This document shows, piece after piece, positions 1 through 40,587 of a stretch of DNA of 40,587 nucleotides (positions are counted from its first letter, which is position 1; every line of letters begins with the position of its first letter). A program made the translations under genes and the position numbers. The notes beneath the pieces are model-generated. The model ran no database searches, was not told where the DNA came from, and saw only the letters and a list, made by a program, of their open reading frames with translations. The stretch comes from a virus (lineage: Duplodnaviria; Heunggongvirae; Uroviricota; Caudoviricetes), in the IMG/VR virus record IMGVR_UViG_2563366988_000007, positions 1 to 40,587 of that record. One strand, written 5' to 3'.

Positions 1-516
1 ATGAAATTTAAAAAATGTCTTCTGCCTGTGGCAATGTTAGCGTCATTCACTCTGGCAGGATGCCAGTCAAATGCTGATGATCATGCCGCCGATGTTTATC
101 AAACCGATCAACTGAATACCAAACAAGAAACTAAAACCGTTAATATTATTTCCATTCTTCCCGCAAAAGTTGCCGTAGACAACTCCCAAAATAAACGGAA
201 CGCACAAGCCTTCGGCGCGCTTATTGGTGCAGTCGCTGGCGGTGTAATCGGCCACAACGTGGGGTCTGGCAGCAATTCCGGAACGACGGCAGGTGCAGTT
301 GGCGGCGGAGCTGTTGGCGCGGCAGCGGGTTCTATGGTGAATGATAAAACCTTAGTGGAAGGTGTTTCTTTAACGTATAAGGAAGGCACCAAAGTGTATA
401 CCTCCACCCAGGTGGGTAAAGAGTGCCAGTTTACGACAGGTTTAGCCGTTGTTATTACCACGACGTATAACGAAACGCGTATTCAGCCAAATACGAAATG
501 TCCTGAAAAGAGCTAA
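1..516 (+). CDS. Lipoprotein with glycine-zipper segment (YcfJ-like); host gene or prophage cargo
   Basis: Signal peptide with lipobox LAGC; Gly/Ala zipper GAVAGGVIGHNVG; ATG at window position 1. Confidence 0.6.
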   Translation: MKFKKCLLPVAMLASFTLAGCQSNADDHAADVYQTDQLNTKQETKTVNIISILPAKVAVDNSQNKRNAQAFGALIGAVAGGVIGHNVGSGSNSGTTAGAVGGGAVGAAAGSMVNDKTLVEGVSLTYKEGTKVYTSTQVGKECQFTTGLAVVITTTYNETRIQPNTKCPEKS

Positions 517-531
517 TGATCAGGAGGAGTC

Positions 532-1071
532 ATGAAGAAAGTTTTTCTTTGCGCCATCTTAGCCTCCTTAAGCTATCCGGCTATCGCCTCATCATTGCAG
601 GATCAACTCTCGGCTGTCGCAGAAGCGGAACAGCAAGGTAAAAATGAAGAGCAAAGGCAGCATGACGAATGGGTCGCGGAGCGCAACAGGGAAATCCAGC
701 AAGAGAAGCAACGTCGCGCAAACGCCCAGGCCGCGGCTAATAAAAGAGCGGCAACGGCAGCGGCGAATAAGAAAGCTCGTCAGGATAAACTGGACGCCGA
801 AGCCACTGCGGACAAAAAACGCGATCAAAGTTATGAAGATGAGCTACGCAGCTTAGAGATTCAGAAACAAAAACTGGCGCTGGCGAAAGAAGAAGCCCGC
901 GTCAAGCGCGAAAACGAATTTATCGATCAGGAACTGAAGCACAAAGCTGCGCAAACCGATGTGGTGCAATCTGAAGCTGACGCAAACAGAAATATGACTG
1001 AAGGCGGTCGCGATCTGATGAAAAGCGTGGGCAAAGCAGAAGAGAACAAATCGGACAGCTGGTTTAACTAA
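532..1071 (+). CDS. Secreted coiled-coil protein, charged K/E/R/A/Q-rich, unknown function
   Basis: N-terminal signal peptide (MKKVFLCAILASLSYPAIA); SD aggagg 8 nt upstream; same operon as 1-516. Confidence 0.55.
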   Translation: MKKVFLCAILASLSYPAIASSLQDQLSAVAEAEQQGKNEEQRQHDEWVAERNREIQQEKQRRANAQAAANKRAATAAANKKARQDKLDAEATADKKRDQSYEDELRSLEIQKQKLALAKEEARVKRENEFIDQELKHKAAQTDVVQSEADANRNMTEGGRDLMKSVGKAEENKSDSWFN

Positions 1072-1111
1072 GCGATGTCAGTAACTTCAAGCCTATGATT
1101 CGTGAGTATAA

Positions 1112-1141
1112 AAAACCCTCTGTAGTAACAGAGGGTTTTGT
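1112..1141 (+). terminator. Intrinsic terminator (A-tract, 7-bp GC stem ccctctg/cagaggg, T-tract), possibly bidirectional
   Basis: aaaaccctctg-tagtaa-cagagggtttt read directly. Confidence 0.6.
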
Positions 1142-1289
1142 TCATTCATAGTGCAGGGTTCAAATCATTCCCACTCAATTATTTACGATAACCATAACCA
1201 ATTGAGTGATAACATTTTTCCAAATCTCAATTTTTCCCGTACCGTTTTATATACCGTCACCGGAAATCAGTACCATGAAAAATGCCATG

Positions 1290-1772
1290 CTATCTGGTCA
1301 AAGTGTCGTACTGTTTTTCGCAGACTCTTCCGGCTTCGGCTGCCCGGTCAGCATACTCTGCCAGTTGTCTGTTTCTCTCGAGAGATTTGCTGAGCACGTC
1401 GGCAAGCAAAACTCCGGTGTCTGCGGCTGACGACCCAGCGCCGACAATGGCGTTATACTGCCTGAGCTGCTCACGGATGGCAAAGAGTTGTTGCTGCAAC
1501 CGGCCAGCGCTAGCGGCAGCATCAAGAGCATCATTGCGCGCCTGGTCGATCCTCTGCTGAGCTTCACGTTCATTGGTCACTTTCTCCTGTTCGTAGTACT
1601 GACGAACTTTGTCTTCTTCGGCTTTGCGGTCTTCTTCCGCCTGAGCATACCCGGCATCGTACTGGCGACTGCCGTGTATATTCCAGGCAACCACTCCTGA
1701 TATGACCAGAACAGCAAGCACTGCCACGATAAGAAACTGTTTCCAGTATGCTTTTACGAATGCCCAGATCAT
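1290..1772 (-). CDS. Rz-like i-spanin
   Basis: N-terminal TM helix then charged coiled-coil periplasmic domain; directly downstream of endolysin. Confidence 0.65.
1298..1573 (-). CDS. Rz1-like o-spanin lipoprotein embedded out of frame inside Rz
   Basis: Lipoprotein signal [27 protein letters not shown], Pro-rich mature part; AGGAG about 10 nt upstream. Confidence 0.5.
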   Translation of the reverse strand: MNVKLSRGSTRRAMMLLMLPLALAGCSNNSLPSVSSSGSITPLSALGRQPQTPEFCLPTCSANLSRETDNWQSMLTGQPKPEESAKNSTTL

Positions 1773-2398: not shown

Positions 2399-2696
2399 GT
2401 TTAGACCTCGATACTTTAAAAATTTGAACGACGTTACCGCGCGTTTTAATAACCGCAGCCAGCATGACAGCGTTGATAATGACCTCAGATAAATCCACAG
2501 CCATTGGCGTACGTAACCAGATTGCATAGGCGACTCGAACAGGAATACTGGCCGCAGCAACAATCAGGAAATAAGCAAGCCATCCTCCCCACCTTCGATG
2601 TTGAGAGCCGTTACGCCGGAATGTGACAACGCGAATTGCTATGCCAGTGCAAATAACTGCATTGGTGATAAGCAAAAAAAACTCATGCGTTACCAT
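2388..2696 (-). CDS. Small membrane protein of lysis cassette (holin/antiholin-like)
   Basis: Two to three predicted TM segments; position between holin and endolysin. Confidence 0.45.
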
Positions 2697-3087
2697 CGTC
2701 TTTTCTCCCCGGAATTAACTCGCGTGGATTATCGGAACGGTGATAGAGCCATATACCAATACGCACAGCGACAATTGCTGACACGAATGCGCCTGCAGAG
2801 AAAACAATCCCTTTTTCAAAAGAGTCCTGCGTGATGGTAGGGATCAGGCTGGCTATGCCGATAAGAATTGATGCTGCTGGTTTGTAAAAGAGAAGGCCGC
2901 AAAGAAAGCTGAGCATCGACAGGAGCACCCGGCGACGGATGGGGTACTCTACTGCAGAGGTAACAAAAATTACCGCCCCAGCCAAAGCCCCTAAAGCAAC
3001 CTCCGGAGGGACACCTGCAATAACCGCAGCAAGAGAACCAAAACTAAGCAACTGATTTAATTGCTCACTTGTTACTTGAGCAGACAT
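2683..3087 (-). CDS. Holin-like membrane protein
   Basis: Multiple hydrophobic helices, charged C-terminus, first gene of lysis cassette. Confidence 0.5.
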   Translation of the reverse strand: MSAQVTSEQLNQLLSFGSLAAVIAGVPPEVALGALAGAVIFVTSAVEYPIRRRVLLSMLSFLCGLLFYKPAASILIGIASLIPTITQDSFEKGIVFSAGAFVSAIVAVRIGIWLYHRSDNPRELIPGRKDDGNA

Positions 3088-3367
3088 ACTTTCTCCTGTT
3101 TACTATCTATAAGCCAGTCAATTATTGATGACTAAACCCGCATAGTAAACCATATATGAATCATTATTGTTCCATATCATATATCTCAATAAAAGTACTA
3201 ATGATTTTACAGAACGAGCCAGCAGAGTGGGGGCAGTTGTACAGGAACCATAGACTTAATTTTGTATTTAATAATGCTATGGTGTAATAAACCTGAACAT
3301 GTATTTAAAATACGTACTGATTCATGATAGAATTCAAAGATAACTTTTCACAAACTCCGTTTTTGAT

Positions 3368-3395
3368 ACCCGCAAAATATTGCGGGCTTTTTTTT
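3368..3395 (+). terminator. Intrinsic terminator oriented on + strand (stem cccgcaa/ttgcggg plus T8)
   Basis: acccgcaaaatattgcgggctttttttt; T-tract only on + side. Confidence 0.45.
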
Positions 3396-6300
3396 AACGT
3401 TCTTCCAGAGACTGAATCCGCTCTTTTATCTTATCCATTTCTCTGCGCTGCCATGCTGCCTCGATATAGAATAAGAGATCAGGTCTGACCCCCCATCTAG
3501 ATCCTGCTGGCGTTATTTCAACGCGCTCAATGATGTCTTCTATTACCATCACTGGATTATCATCCTCATCAACAATGATGCTCCCGTCATTATCAGTCAG
3601 CGGCATTTCCCTTTGGCCAGTAATGACGTCATCATATACTGCGGGATAATCGTCATAGCAAAGAAAGGCATAGCGGCATGTTGTGCTTTCTTCTTCCATG
3701 AGTCCGTGAGAAATAAGAACATCACGAAGTTGCTGCGCGATTACACCATGATGTATCCTCGCCCCTTCTTCCCCCTTTATAGCGACAGCGTTCAGCCATT
3801 TATAAGCGATATACCTGACGTCACCCCAGGCATCCAGCAATGCTTCGTCAGGAGAGACCGGCTCTGTCTTTAATGTTCCGTCACTGGTAACCACAGGATT
3901 GGAGCCAAGATAAACTGTCGAGAACCTGTTTCCCGGACCACCAAGAGCATTTACATTATCAAGATAAGGTTTAACATCTCCGTTCTCAAAAAGATGTTCG
4001 AGTGCGTTATATACCGCGCGACGTGGAGTACTGCTTCCGGAACCATGCAACGTTATCATTGCACCATCTGCTGAAGACGTTGTTTCACCGCCGCTAACGA
4101 TTAATCTCTGAGCGGTAACATCATCAGACGGTACTTTCTTCGCAATAATGGCGTAATTACCCTCAAGTTTGACTTCCGCGCGAACTTGTCCTGATGTACC
4201 TGCATGGACAGTCAGTGACTGGACGGCAACATCATCTGTGAAATCAACGGGTACAGGAACCGTCCTCACGCCTGACGTCGACATAAAAGTAGGAAGCGTT
4301 CTGTTAGGAGTGGCTCCGTAGACAAAATCCCTTGAAACAAATTCTTCCTGTTTAATTTTCACCCTGAAACAATACAAATCAGCCGGGTGACCATCGTGAA
4401 CATAAGGATATTTTCTGTTGTTATCCCCTATGCTCCATGGGTTTAGAAAGTCTTCCCCACCGAAAATGTAGTACAGCCAGTTGTCTTTGATACAAACTGA
4501 ACCAACACCAACCGCAGAGTTAACTATTCCGCCCTGATAAATCTGATCAGTAACATTAACCCACTCTACATTATCCAGACTCCACTCATTGACGTTAACT
4601 CTGGTCATAAATGTTCTTGGATAATTTCCTGCATAACGGTTATCAGGTTCTCCTCCTTCCCACTCACCAAATGCGCGCTCACTGCCAAAAATAATCAGCT
4701 CATCGCCAACTTTGGCAAAAGGAAGGTTTGAGTGATGAACATTATTTGGGAAGCGAAGAGAATTCCATGATGTACCTAAATCAGAGCTTCTGTGCAATGA
4801 ACTACCGGGTTGAGTACTTAATGTCCCCCTGGTCGTCAGATACAGAATGCCATCATAATATTTTACACATGGCTCAGATGCATTCGCCTCATATTCTACA
4901 GGTATGCGTCTGCGAACAAAGCTACCAGGAGAACCGAAAGCATCAGAGAAATAGAGTATCCCAAGCTCGCGTGGACCAATATCACCATTATGGTAGCCAA
5001 CAGCAAAACTGTTATCGCTAATCGTCGCAAAACTGTGAATCTCAGTAACAGGAGTGCTTCCGTCAACAAAAGAAGGAATAGTTCCAAGACTGGTTTTTCT
5101 CCATGGTGACGAGTGAAATGATGTACCAAAACTCCAGTATCTACCCTCGTTATTCTGATCCACATCCTGGGTATTTTGCGTCGTAACTGTAAAAGTATTT
5201 TTATCAATAACAGTAGTCACCGTCATATTCCCGGTAACACCTGTAACACCAGAGTTTGAGAAGTTGACAAAATCACCAGCAAATAATCCGTGATCAGTAA
5301 TGCGAATATAAGCGACTTGCTGATTTGCTGCTTTCGTTATACCACCATAAACGCGAAGGCTGCGACTCATTGGGCGATCCCACAACTCTGCAACCTGCAG
5401 TTTATTTCCGCTCACGGTCCGCGTCTCAATTACAGCAAAAAGGCGATTTCTGACAACCCCCATACTCATGCAGTGATAGTTAACTGTGGGATAGTTTTCA
5501 TGTAAATCTGTAAGCCATTCCGGCGTTGTCCAGGTCTTCCCGTCATCTCCTGAGCGAACCCATGCAACATGGAGGTTATTTACACCATGGCGGTCTCCAG
5601 CCATAAAAGGCGCATAGATGACATTGTCATATACAAACGTTTTATCCTGCGTCCAGGCGTTGTACCACGGTGTATCTGTAATTTTAAATAACTCTCCCTG
5701 GATAAAATCTTCAGAAGCATAAAAAAGAGGCTGGCCCGGTATTCTCTCAAATAAAAAACGAGCATTTTTAAATCGACTGACATCCGGAAGAGTTGATACT
5801 TTAAAAGTAAGCCCTAATCCGTCAATTTTATAACCTGGAGATGAGGCTTCAAGGCACGCGCTTATTGCAGTGGAATCGTCATTTATACCATCACCAACAG
5901 CTCCAAAATCTTTGGGGCTAATAGCATCACGCATTTTATCCTGGAACGTTCGGTACACAGCCCCAGAACCATACTGAATAAACCAACCAAAACCACCAAC
6001 AACCCCGGCGATTGCAGCATCGACATAATTACGCATTGAGCGATTATTTACAGCGTCCTGCTCAAATGATGGATCTGCAAGGTTAGAAATTTTGTTTTGC
6101 TTTGCATCGTAATATTTTGCAAGCAAAGATGGTTTCATCAATGCACGTCTGAACCACCCAAAACATTGCTGGATCAGCATCGTCAGGTAGTCAAAGGCAT
6201 CTTCATGCACTTCGGGGAAAAATTTTCCCTGATTGCGAAGGTCTGTCTCCTGCACTACATCAAGCACACGATCTATCGTAATTCGCCATCCAGTAGCAAG

Positions 6301-6513
6301 CGGAGACGGAAGAACCACAGAACCGCCACTATAAGTGCCCGCCCCAGTTACCGTATAACCGGTATCCAGAACCAATTCTGTTACGTTCCCGTTCAGGTCA
6401 GACACCTGAACAACCAGGTCTGATTTTCTGAAAATTCGAAAAGTATACGGAAACGATGTCGTAACGCCGTTACCGGTGTATTCGTTGTGGTCAACTTCGG
6501 TTGAGACCGTCAT
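3394..6513 (-). CDS. Tailspike/depolymerase: epsilon15-type N-terminal anchor, beta-helix-like central domain, C-terminal intramolecular chaperone (peptidase S74-like)
   Basis: N-term MTVSTEVDHNEYTGNGVTTSFPY; FGAVGDGINDDSTAI motif; Asp-box-like SGDDGKTW and SSDLGTSW; C-terminal SDGTLK cleavage-type motif. Confidence 0.8.
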   Translation of the reverse strand: MTVSTEVDHNEYTGNGVTTSFPYTFRIFRKSDLVVQVSDLNGNVTELVLDTGYTVTGAGTYSGGSVVLPSPLATGWRITIDRVLDVVQETDLRNQGKFFPEVHEDAFDYLTMLIQQCFGWFRRALMKPSLLAKYYDAKQNKISNLADPSFEQDAVNNRSMRNYVDAAIAGVVGGFGWFIQYGSGAVYRTFQDKMRDAISPKDFGAVGDGINDDSTAISACLEASSPGYKIDGLGLTFKVSTLPDVSRFKNARFLFERIPGQPLFYASEDFIQGELFKITDTPWYNAWTQDKTFVYDNVIYAPFMAGDRHGVNNLHVAWVRSGDDGKTWTTPEWLTDLHENYPTVNYHCMSMGVVRNRLFAVIETRTVSGNKLQVAELWDRPMSRSLRVYGGITKAANQQVAYIRITDHGLFAGDFVNFSNSGVTGVTGNMTVTTVIDKNTFTVTTQNTQDVDQNNEGRYWSFGTSFHSSPWRKTSLGTIPSFVDGSTPVTEIHSFATISDNSFAVGYHNGDIGPRELGILYFSDAFGSPGSFVRRRIPVEYEANASEPCVKYYDGILYLTTRGTLSTQPGSSLHRSSDLGTSWNSLRFPNNVHHSNLPFAKVGDELIIFGSERAFGEWEGGEPDNRYAGNYPRTFMTRVNVNEWSLDNVEWVNVTDQIYQGGIVNSAVGVGSVCIKDNWLYYIFGGEDFLNPWSIGDNNRKYPYVHDGHPADLYCFRVKIKQEEFVSRDFVYGATPNRTLPTFMSTSGVRTVPVPVDFTDDVAVQSLTVHAGTSGQVRAEVKLEGNYAIIAKKVPSDDVTAQRLIVSGGETTSSADGAMITLHGSGSSTPRRAVYNALEHLFENGDVKPYLDNVNALGGPGNRFSTVYLGSNPVVTSDGTLKTEPVSPDEALLDAWGDVRYIAYKWLNAVAIKGEEGARIHHGVIAQQLRDVLISHGLMEEESTTCRYAFLCYDDYPAVYDDVITGQREMPLTDNDGSIIVDEDDNPVMVIEDIIERVEITPAGSRWGVRPDLLFYIEAAWQRREMDKIKERIQSLEER

Positions 6514-6617
6514 GTTAAATCTCCAGATAGTCGCAGCACCCGTTGCGCCGCATATCTGGTTATTCTATTACCTGTAAAACCACATATGGATAGAAAGGCT
6601 GTAAATACGAATAGATA

Positions 6618-6632
6618 TTACCTTTCAGGTAA
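6618..6632. promoter_or_regulatory. Operator-like palindrome TTACC-N5-GGTAA (ttacctttcaggtaa)
   Basis: Perfect 5+5 inverted repeat; identical 15-mer at 25228. Confidence 0.5.
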
Positions 6633-6669
6633 TTTGCAAAACGTGCTGGATAGCAAACAAATTATTTGC

Positions 6670-6689
6670 TACTGTATAAATATACAGTT
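6670..6689. promoter_or_regulatory. LexA box (SOS box) tACTGTataaatatACAGtt
   Basis: CTGT-N8(AT-rich)-ACAG matches LexA consensus; 20 nt upstream of SD/ATG of 6709 gene. Confidence 0.7.
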
Positions 6690-6708
6690 ATTGCATGGAG
6701 AAGATAAG

Positions 6709-6966
6709 ATGCAGCAGTATCACTATCCACTGGAAGACGGATTTACCGAAAGGATTCACACGCCGGGAGGCGTCAGGTCACTGGTGGAGGGATCGCACTT
6801 GATGAAATTACTCCGGGATCTCGATAAGGATGGATTTAATGTCGATGGCCCACTTGCCGAACTGACTGCACTGATTAACTACGTCACCAGCTCACAGATG
6901 TCTATGCGGGATCTGCAAACACATCTCGACTATTGTGCCGAACAATTACGAAAACAAACCAGATAA
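6709..6966 (+). CDS. Small SOS-regulated protein, candidate antirepressor (Tum-like logic); paralogous to C-terminal domain of adjacent Bro-N protein
   Basis: GGAG SD 8 nt upstream of ATG; LexA box in promoter; shared motifs HTPGGV/HSPSGV, AEL, RDLQTH/RDIQTH with 7282-7977 C-terminus. Confidence 0.55.
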   Translation: MQQYHYPLEDGFTERIHTPGGVRSLVEGSHLMKLLRDLDKDGFNVDGPLAELTALINYVTSSQMSMRDLQTHLDYCAEQLRKQTR

Positions 6967-7104
6967 GGTTTGCAATTACCAAGTGGAGTGCTTATATTTA
7001 CCTTTGAGATAAATTTACATCGCACTCCTCTTGTGCCATAGTAATCGGGCACTGGCAAAATCCAGTGCCGGGATTGGCGTCCCGGATTACTAAAAGGCGC
7101 ATTC

Positions 7105-25564: not shown

Positions 25565-25641
25565 GTGGCATTAGCTCAGTTGGACAGAGCAACCGCCTTC
25601 TAAGCGGTTGGTCGCAGGTTCGAATCCTGCATGCCACGCCA
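25565..25641 (+). tRNA. tRNA-Arg, anticodon UCU
   Basis: Cloverleaf folded by hand: acceptor GTGGCAT/ATGCCAC, D-arm GCTC/GAGC, anticodon stem ACCGC/GCGGT with loop CTTCTAA, T-arm GCAGG-TTCGAAT-CCTGC, discriminator G, encoded CCA. Confidence 0.85.
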
Positions 25642-39336: not shown

Positions 39337-40587
39337 TTATTCCCCCGCCATCCACTTCTCAAACTTCGACGGGGAGAACGGAATCAGATCCGTATGCTCC
39401 CCGTCAATCCATGAATCAATCATATCGGCCCACTGCTGCAACATGTAGGCGCGCTGTCTGGCGTATTCCGCTTTGTTATATACGGCGCGCACACCTTTCT
39501 GCTCATGTGCCAGAGCCTTTTCAATCCAGTCTGAAGGATAACCAGCCTCATGCAACAACGTACTGGCTGTACGGCGCATATCGTGTACGGTGAAGCCCTG
39601 AATATGCTCACCATCTTCATTTATTATTTTCACCGTTCTGTCGATCAGAGAGTTCAGCGCGGCATTAGATAATGGCTTCCGGAAATTGTAACGACCAGGA
39701 ACCAGATATTCACTTCCACCAGCGCACATCTGCAACCCAACCAATATATCCTGTGCCTGTTTAGGCAGGTAAATAACGTGCGCCCGGCTTCCCTTCATGC
39801 GGTCTGAAGGAATTGTCCATGTCCATTTTTTAAAATCTATTTCATCCCACGTTGCATTGGTGAATTCGCCTTTACGAACCATAGTGATAAGCACCAGCTT
39901 TAAAGCCATTTTCATAGTGCCCATAGCACCAATGGCATCCAGCGTGCGGAAGAACAGGCCAATTTCTTCTGGTGTCAGTGTTCGCTCTCGTGGTTTAAAT
40001 ATGGCGATAGACGAAGGTTTAATGTCAGCCGCAGGATTAAACAAACCATGACCACGGTCATTGGCGTGACGGTATACGCTGCTGATGATCTCCCTAGCCT
40101 GTACTGCTGTTGCCCGACCACCGCGTTCGACAATCCGGTCACACAAATCACGAACCATCGATGTGGTAATTTCAGCCATCATTTTGTTACCAAGAACAGG
40201 AAGTATGTCACGGTCGATCACCGCCTGCTTCATTGCGCGGGTACTGTCAGCCAGGATGACGTGTTTCATATAACTGTCGGTATGTACCGCAAACGTCTCG
40301 GCACCACGAATCTTTTTGATACCGTCACGTTTAGCCGCAGCCGGTGACTGGCCTGCTTTAAGCAGCTTCTTTGCAGCAATCAGTTCTTCTCGCGCTTCTG
40401 CCAGGCTGATACCGTCACGCCCATACTGCCCGATTACCAGTGTTTCGCGGCGACCGTTGATACGGTAGTCATAGCGAAACGAGACCGTGCCTGACGTAAG
40501 CACAGCTACATACAGCCCGTCACGATCGGAGACCTTGTACAGTTTGTCCTGCGGCTTGAGGTTTTTTAATTTTGTATCGGTAAGCAC
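39337..40587 (-). CDS. int: Tyrosine integrase (P4-like arm-binding N-terminus); GTG start at window edge, N-terminus may extend beyond window
   Basis: N-term LTDTKLKNLKP; catalytic region HDMRRTASTLLHEAGY...LAHEQKGVRAVYN. Confidence 0.85.
   Translation of the reverse strand: MLTDTKLKNLKPQDKLYKVSDRDGLYVAVLTSGTVSFRYDYRINGRRETLVIGQYGRDGISLAEAREELIAAKKLLKAGQSPAAAKRDGIKKIRGAETFAVHTDSYMKHVILADSTRAMKQAVIDRDILPVLGNKMMAEITTSMVRDLCDRIVERGGRATAVQAREIISSVYRHANDRGHGLFNPAADIKPSSIAIFKPRERTLTPEEIGLFFRTLDAIGAMGTMKMALKLVLITMVRKGEFTNATWDEIDFKKWTWTIPSDRMKGSRAHVIYLPKQAQDILVGLQMCAGGSEYLVPGRYNFRKPLSNAALNSLIDRTVKIINEDGEHIQGFTVHDMRRTASTLLHEAGYPSDWIEKALAHEQKGVRAVYNKAEYARQRAYMLQQWADMIDSWIDGEHTDLIPFSPSKFEKWMAGE

Follow-up and report, generated by a model that had tools for sequence, protein, structure and literature searches.

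The left end of a phiV10-like prophage at guaA: two Escherichia coli genes, the attR core and a P′ arm with a putative IHF-type block

We analysed a stretch of 40,587 nucleotides of viral DNA (IMG/VR record IMGVR_UViG_2563366988_000007; hereafter, the window) and found that its left end is bacterial. Positions 1–1162 are E. coli chromosome, with the host genes yfgH and yfgI; the boundary lies at 1179/1180 with phage DNA from 1180 on, and a 17-bp attachment core marks the junction as attR. Sequence comparison assigns the prophage to Uetakevirus, as a phiV10/epsilon15-like member that lies in the 3′ end of guaA. The gene identities, the boundary, the core and the pattern of conservation in the adjoining phage arm come directly from the comparisons below. 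We consider it highly likely that the left end as a whole consists of a host flank, the attR core and a lambda-like P′ arm with an IHF-type block; a 9-bp inverted repeat conspicuous at the junction is probably incidental. With the left prophage boundary set, two host genes drop out of the candidate phage cargo. The guaA 3′ end is a known and often used integration site, the remainder is known or follows by routine deduction, and the result matters mainly for correct annotation.

Results and Discussion

yfgH and yfgI are host genes flanking the prophage

The window opens with two co-oriented ORFs (1–516 and 532–1071; Table 1), described in the initial annotation as encoding a glycine-zipper lipoprotein and a secreted coiled-coil protein, and their products are indeed of these kinds. 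The first has a lipobox (LAGC, with Cys21) and a PF05433 glycine-zipper 2TM domain that scores 33.2 bits against the Pfam cut-off of 24.2; a lipobox cysteine together with a 2TM domain above cut-off places it among the YfgH/SlyB-like glycine-zipper outer-membrane lipoproteins. The second matches PF17358 (DUF5384) over the full length of the profile (positions 1–145 of 145; 4e-62, 209 bits), has, by eye, a Sec-type signal peptide, and is modelled by AlphaFold as a single long helix (residues 16–178, pLDDT 88). YfgH has been described as a lipoprotein stabilising the outer membrane (bioRxiv 10.64898/2025.12.22.696046), and yfgHI has been handled as one locus, with a sensitivity to DNA damage reported for yfgI mutants (PMC11619404). 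Strong ribosome-binding sites had been attributed to both genes. That of yfgI is in place, AGGAGG 4 nt ahead of the ATG, whereas none is visible for yfgH, the window starting at its ATG; RefSeq begins yfgH at a GTG, 3 nt before the first position of the window, with AAGGAA ahead of it (positions 2998–3003 of locus L002). The window starts at an in-frame yfgH ATG and ends at the start codon of int, which suggests that gene boundaries determined where it was cut.

Table 1. Features of the window, their positions and the evidence for their assignment
Feature	Position	Strand	Basis
yfgH, glycine-zipper 2TM outer-membrane lipoprotein, host core gene (ORF1)	1..516	+	ORF, Pfam, RefSeq annotation
Ribosome-binding site of yfgI, AGGAGG	522..527	+	from sequence
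yfgI, DUF5384, host core gene (ORF2)	532..1071	+	ORF, PF17358, RefSeq annotation, AlphaFold
Putative bidirectional intrinsic terminator: A-run, stem CCCTCTGT/ACAGAGGG, T-run	1110..1142	.	folding of both strands, inverted repeat
17-bp att core (O) of attR, AATCATTCCCACTCAAT	1163..1179	.	identical in attB, attL, attR and three attP
Duplicate of last four guaA codons and stop, ATT GAG TGG GAA TGA (I E W E stop)	1165..1179	-	empty-site guaA end, alignment
Putative 7-bp overlap (strand exchange), CCCACTC	1170..1176	.	dyad, near-invariance in 131 arms, other-host junctions
Left arm of inverted repeat, cactcaatt	1172..1180	.	eight core bases and first phage base
Putative C′ core-type integrase half-site, AATTATTTAC	1177..1186	.	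1180–1186 is phage DNA
TATTTAC	1180–1186		at least 98% conserved
Spacer	1187–1192		variable
CATAACCAATTGAnTGnnAACA	1193–1214		conserved
IHF-like motif A-n-TCAA-N4-TTA, candidate H′-type bending site	1195..1207	-	arm conservation, epsilon15 annotation
Right arm of inverted repeat, aattgagtg	1200..1208	.	inside conserved P′-arm block 1193–1214
Spacer	1215–1239		variable
TACCGTTTTATATACCGTCAC	1240 onward		constant
Putative P′ arm-type integrase sites, TACCGT-N6-TACCGTCAC	1240..1262	.	motif, epsilon15 annotation; just beyond the interval of the initial annotation
Rz-like spanin (DUF2514), last phage gene	1290..1772	-	ORF, PF10721, phiV10 annotation
Rz1 lipoprotein, embedded in Rz	1298–1573	-	ORF
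phiV10-type tyrosine integrase (int)	39337..40587	-	Arm-DNA-bind_3, Phage_int_M, Phage_integrase; window ends at start codon

The initial annotation took the pair for a cargo operon, gave a host junction as the alternative, and pointed out that conservation of the genes in strains lacking the prophage would make them host flank. They are so conserved. A search with window 1–1300 found yfgH-yfgI, under these RefSeq names, in 5422 of 5426 complete E. coli genomes. About 4850 of the 5422 have an empty site, with guaA directly after; these include K-12 derivatives, DH5a, a B strain, C41(DE3) and O157:H7. In most complete E. coli genomes the match ends at window position 1179, with guaA under its end, and prophage-free strain B1172 has the gene order yfgG-yfgH-yfgI-guaA-guaB. 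The E. coli K-12 locus (b2505–b2506) has the same genes, in the same order and with the same neighbours, yfgG upstream and convergent guaA downstream. K-12-derived strains are ~97.6% identical in DNA to yfgH-yfgI of the window, and nothing of substance differs from the K-12 locus, guaA having been moved away by the ~40 kb prophage. The occurrence of yfgH-yfgI in prophage-free E. coli genomes thus refutes the cargo reading, and window 1–1071 is host flank.

Lysogenic-conversion cargo, that is, a moron operon beyond the lysis cassette, would suit two genes located beside the lysis genes, the more so as morons often specify envelope proteins, as these two do. We nevertheless regard this as extremely improbable. 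A moron is enclosed by the att boundaries and accompanies the prophage without exception, never occurring apart from it, whereas yfgH-yfgI lie outside the att core, to its left, and keep the arrangement yfgG-yfgH-yfgI-guaA where the att site is empty. Moreover, the free-phage genomes of phiV10, epsilon15 and Tyrion are without the two genes, Rz being followed there by attP and int. In one lysogen, E. coli S1-SRB-02-B, the interval between yfgI and Rz contains a copy of IS200C.

The attR core sets the host/phage boundary

The sequence AATCATTCCCACTCAAT at 1163–1179 is the exact reverse complement of attgagtgggaatgatt, the published core of phiV10, epsilon15 and vB_EcoP_ZX5, which integrate at the guaA 3′ end (PMC9782041) and share with this prophage both the 17-bp core and the target, the last codons and stop. 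We aligned the window junction with an empty site, with both junctions of the related lysogen 04-00955 and with the attP regions of phiV10, epsilon15 and Tyrion, and found the 17 bp to be common to attB, attL, attR and the three attP. Host homology stops at 1179 and phage homology begins at 1163. The alignment of the core therefore places the boundary at 1179/1180 and identifies this junction as attR. The initial annotation held that the boundary could not be set, which is true without comparators; an empty-site genome, related lysogens and attP fix it, and the host junction that had been offered as the alternative is the correct one, with the core next to host genes.

Read in reverse complement, the core is ATT GAG TGG GAA TGA TT, the last four codons and the stop codon of guaA; the annotated end of guaA at an empty site (L002 4165) corresponds to window position 1165. 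The phage thus supplies the four terminal guaA codons and the stop itself, and guaA stays intact at the other junction, beyond the integrase. Indeed, an intact guaA lies beside int in lysogens 04-00955 and APEC O1, and the annotated order in APEC O1 is yfgI...integrase-guaA. As the initial annotation recognized, the window does not reach the integrase-side junction, its last codon being the start of int; attL was read in 04-00955, where the core lies ~190 bp beyond the start of int. A query spanning the left junction (1090–1290) was at least 80% covered in only 551 genomes, the remainder matching just 1090–1179. This type of phage junction is found in these 551 genomes, or ~10% of complete E. 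coli genomes.

The 17-bp core at the junction, the insertion at the guaA 3′ end and the restoration of guaA by phage DNA all agree with Uetakevirus, as do the phiV10-type integrase and genome backbone. Window 1150–25000 has 96–98% DNA identity over 79–83% to phiV10, HEMP4 and phiv142-3 (phiV10 alone, 96.4% over 79%). From 1163 onward the window is 96–98% identical to phiV10, HEMP4, phiv142-3 and O157 typing phages, and 76–81% identical to epsilon15 and Tyrion. Its integrase, in which Pfam delimits a separate N-terminal arm-DNA-binding domain, is identical to phiV10 Int at 413 of 416 positions (99%), and its P′ arm is near-identical to that of phiV10. The layout Rz-attP-terminator-int is common to Uetakevirus phages and this prophage.

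The site is common to unrelated elements, as E. coli WAT (L246) illustrates: at the same guaA position it has another island, with CoiA and the kasugamycin acetyltransferase aac(2')-IIa, and its match to the window ends at 1183. GIsul2-type genomic islands also use the guaA 3′ end, with a different integrase and different arms; a paper on site-specific recombination mediated by the GIsul2 integrase mentions guaA ten times (PMC9376610).

A probable terminator between yfgI and guaA stays with the host

A common terminator for the two genes had been proposed, and a hairpin at 1116–1135, with an A-run and a T-run on its sides, bears this out. A consensus terminator/promoter scan of 1–1400 left the hairpin unflagged and gave no promoter above chance; the simple scanner having missed it, the hairpin was assessed by folding. 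Each of the two strands folds strongly (z −4.7 and −5.2), with a 12-bp stem composed of 8 bp of CCCTCTGT/ACAGAGGG and four A-U pairs, and the U-run that follows is UUUUGUU in the plus-strand and UUUUUU in the minus-strand RNA, as expected of a bidirectional rho-independent terminator. The hairpin is also present at empty sites. In uninfected cells it would end both the yfgHI and the convergent guaA transcripts; in the lysogen it would remain with yfgI, end the yfgHI transcripts and block read-through from Rz and the lysis genes.

The phage P arm beside int has a hairpin, AAAAACCCTCTGTAAAAACAGAGGGTT, after guaA (L001 4540–4580, outside the window). The host yfgI/guaA terminator is almost the same in sequence, and the guaA-downstream hairpins of other enteric hosts, with the same distance (~83 nt) to the core, are closely similar. 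Such likeness suggests a captured or mimicked host sequence that would re-terminate guaA and shield int; the hairpin probably insulates int from guaBA transcription.

Putative overlap and core-type half-sites

Tyrosine recombinases usually act on inverted core-type half-sites arranged around an overlap, the same in attP and attB, of 6–8 bp (7 bp in the arrangement proposed here). The attP core lies in an imperfect dyad, AATCATT-CCCACTC-AATTATT, and the corresponding dyad of the epsilon15 attP matches at 10 of 12 positions (TGTAAATCATT/AATTATTTACA). For a wider comparison, we collected the Rz-to-core segments of 240 IMG/VR loci, using three Rz proteins as queries, which gave 131 distinct gap-free P′ arms. 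CCCACTC is invariant or nearly so among them, and positions 1180–1186 are at least 98% conserved even though no host sequence constrains them. Other hosts also provide informative junctions: where guaA ends in TAA (TTATTCCC...) or GAG TAA (TTACTCCC...), attR combines a phage P′ arm with the host base at 1166 or 1168, which places the exchange to the right of those positions. From the symmetry and these junctions we infer the overlap and the core-type half-sites. It is more likely that the repeat relevant to recombination is AATCATT/AATTATT around CCCACTC than the visible 9-bp repeat. The same phage family occurs at guaA of other hosts, in which the gene ends in TAA or GAG TAA (L021, L026, L033, L035 and many other loci). 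In these lysogens attR keeps the host version of the stop, so that the guaA stop at attL should be replaced by the phage TGA.

A conserved block in the P′ arm resembles an IHF site

The P′ arm alternates between conserved and variable segments (Table 1). The filter that yielded the 131 arms demanded TACCGT at 1240, so that part of the invariance of the last block is built in; the block from 1240 onward is constant also in 42 distinct unfiltered arms. In the middle block, the IHF-like pattern W-n-TCAA-N4-TTR occurs at 1195–1207 (minus strand) in 130 of the 131 arms. The only freely variable base of this block, position 1206 (C in 72 arms, G in 52, A in 5 and T in 2), is the second, non-consensus position of the motif. 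On the plus strand, the left arm of the inverted repeat belongs to a similar sequence, A-C-TCAA-TTAT-TTA, at 1173–1185. The two predicted IHF motifs match 8 of the 9 specified positions of WATCAANNNNTTR, which is a loose consensus; just 2 of the 131 arms have it in full, and TATCAC-N4-TTG, in a second register that overlaps the first, fits it about as well. Both homologous segments of epsilon15 are annotated as predicted IHF sites (epsilon15 GenBank feature table). Judging by this conservation, block 1193–1214 most likely binds an IHF-type DNA-bending protein, while another ligand, integrase included, is possible.

The right arm of the repeat could instead be a second, inverted core-type integrase site, or a site for an accessory protein such as excisionase or Fis rather than IHF. 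Read on the minus strand, 1194–1208 (CACTC AATTGGTTAT) agrees in 12 of its 15 positions with C′ and the adjoining end of the overlap (CACTC AATTATTTAC), and it is this likeness of the block to the core end that produces the inverted repeat. The block is also conserved past the IHF consensus positions, including 1198–1201 and 1211–1214 (at the N4 positions, 1198–1201, conservation exceeds what would be expected if the block were just an IHF site), and contains the palindrome CAATTG at 1199–1204. We nonetheless consider such a site unlikely: the annotated epsilon15 attP calls this segment IHF and gives no precedent for a second core-type site, epsilon15 has only 6 of the 9 bases of the arm and yet retains TCAA-N4-TTA, and the 9-nt gap between the extended arms is unfit for a recombination core. 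That the block is an inverted decoy or second core-type site bound by integrase, or that a hairpin of core and P′ arm acts on the late transcript, seems to us quite improbable. If integrase does bind 1193–1214, this guaA-targeting integrase family would have an intasome architecture unlike lambda's.

Beyond the putative IHF-type block, the ATACCGTCAC/GTGACGGTAT motif is annotated as integrase-binding in the epsilon15 GenBank record and recurs in the P arm; GTGACGGTAT is the reverse complement of window 1251–1260. The P′ arm would accordingly have a lambda-like layout, with a half-site at 1177–1186, a bending block at 1193–1214 and two arm-type sites at 1240–1262. We propose that integrase molecules anchored to the arm sites by their N-terminal domain can reach the core because of the bend; both IHF binding (IHF being a predicted ligand) and this mechanism are what we infer from the arrangement.

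The P′ arm of lambda attP is laid out as C′-H′-P′1-3. The order proposed here is the same and the spacing similar: as in lambda, a core-type half-site is accompanied by a bending site ~28 bp from the overlap centre (near 1201) and by tandem arm-type sites ~67–79 bp away (1240 and 1252), and the integrase has a lambda-like arm-binding N-terminal domain. Unlike in lambda, the target is the 3′ end of a protein gene rather than an intergenic site, the sequences are unrelated, the integrase is annotated as P4-like in phiV10, and the sites are predicted from sequence. One IMG/VR contig (3300007747_000006; L043) has a related attP in the phage state, with a 50-bp deletion equivalent to window 1180–1229 and the phage P arm on the other side. 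Lost with the deletion are the C′ extension and all of the IHF-like block, so that the core runs straight into ATTTTTCTAG-TACCGT.

The inverted repeat is probably incidental

The 9-bp inverted repeat reported in the initial annotation is exact and lies where it was said to lie (1172–1180 and 1200–1208); an extended version matches at 12 of 14 positions over 14 nt. Perfect 9-bp inverted repeats with a loop of 3–40 nt occur in ~3.7% of simulated 219-bp intergenic stretches, and in the window as a whole there are 20 such seeds, where 6.3±3.1 would be expected. The repeat is thus real, yet only mildly unexpected by chance. It had been suggested that it could be part of attR, which holds for the left arm, 8 of whose 9 bases overlap the core at 1163–1179, whereas the right arm belongs to the P′ arm of the phage. 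A third copy of CTCAATT at 1226–1232, which makes a regular 26-bp spacing, was dropped, since it is not conserved in phiV10, epsilon15 or most arms.

The left arm is fixed by host guaA, which makes a covariation test of the repeat impossible, and we used the conservation of the 131 P′ arms instead. Pairing is 9/9 in 46 of the distinct arms and 8/9 in 77; at least one stem mismatch is present in 85, and epsilon15-type arms pair at 6/9. Position 1206 varies freely, so that the perfect repeat is left in only 46 arms, and the left arm, its sequence being set by guaA, is unable to compensate. The low frequency of 9/9 pairing suggests that pairing is probably incidental and not what is selected.

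Alternatively, the repeat might act as RNA, forming a hairpin near where the late (lysis) transcript ends and serving there as a processing or stabilising element. Being built from the core and the P′ arm, it would be present in attP and attR alike; folding of the minus-strand RNA gives −15.9 kcal/mol (z −4.7), and the repeat is ~80 nt downstream of the Rz stop. This we judge very unlikely: 85 of 131 arms are mismatched in the stem with no compensation from the guaA-fixed left arm, the hairpin lacks the U-run of an intrinsic terminator, the late transcript would in any case stop at the host terminator, 30 nt beyond the hairpin, and an Rfam scan of 1–1500 (E≤1) returned no match. Both arms of the repeat read A-C-TCAA-N4-TTA, and the repeat would arise from the bending-site block, in which the right end of the core recurs as an inverted near-copy. 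We therefore prefer to read it as a by-product of an IHF-type P′-arm site that resembles this end of the core, the conserved element being, in our reading, the pattern of a protein site.

Gene content of the prophage

The prophage differs from phiV10 in having a K1 endosialidase tailspike and no adjoining O-antigen acetyltransferase gene. The tailspike gene (3394–6513, minus strand) encodes a full K1 endosialidase, with End_N_terminal, beta-propeller, beta-barrel, tail-spike and S74 chaperone domains, in a podovirus whose backbone is phiV10-like; an acetyltransferase gene is absent between tailspike and holins, whereas phiV10 and the 04-00955 prophage have one. The same endosialidase module is found in APEC O1 and in 72 complete E. 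coli genomes. The two related lysogens resemble the window in different parts: 04-00955 matches window 1–1300 at 100% and differs in the tailspike and acetyltransferase module, and APEC O1 matches window 2600–7000 at 99.9% and differs in the early region. The window also carries a phage tRNA-Arg gene (anticodon TCT; 25565–25641, plus strand), which is annotated in related prophages too.
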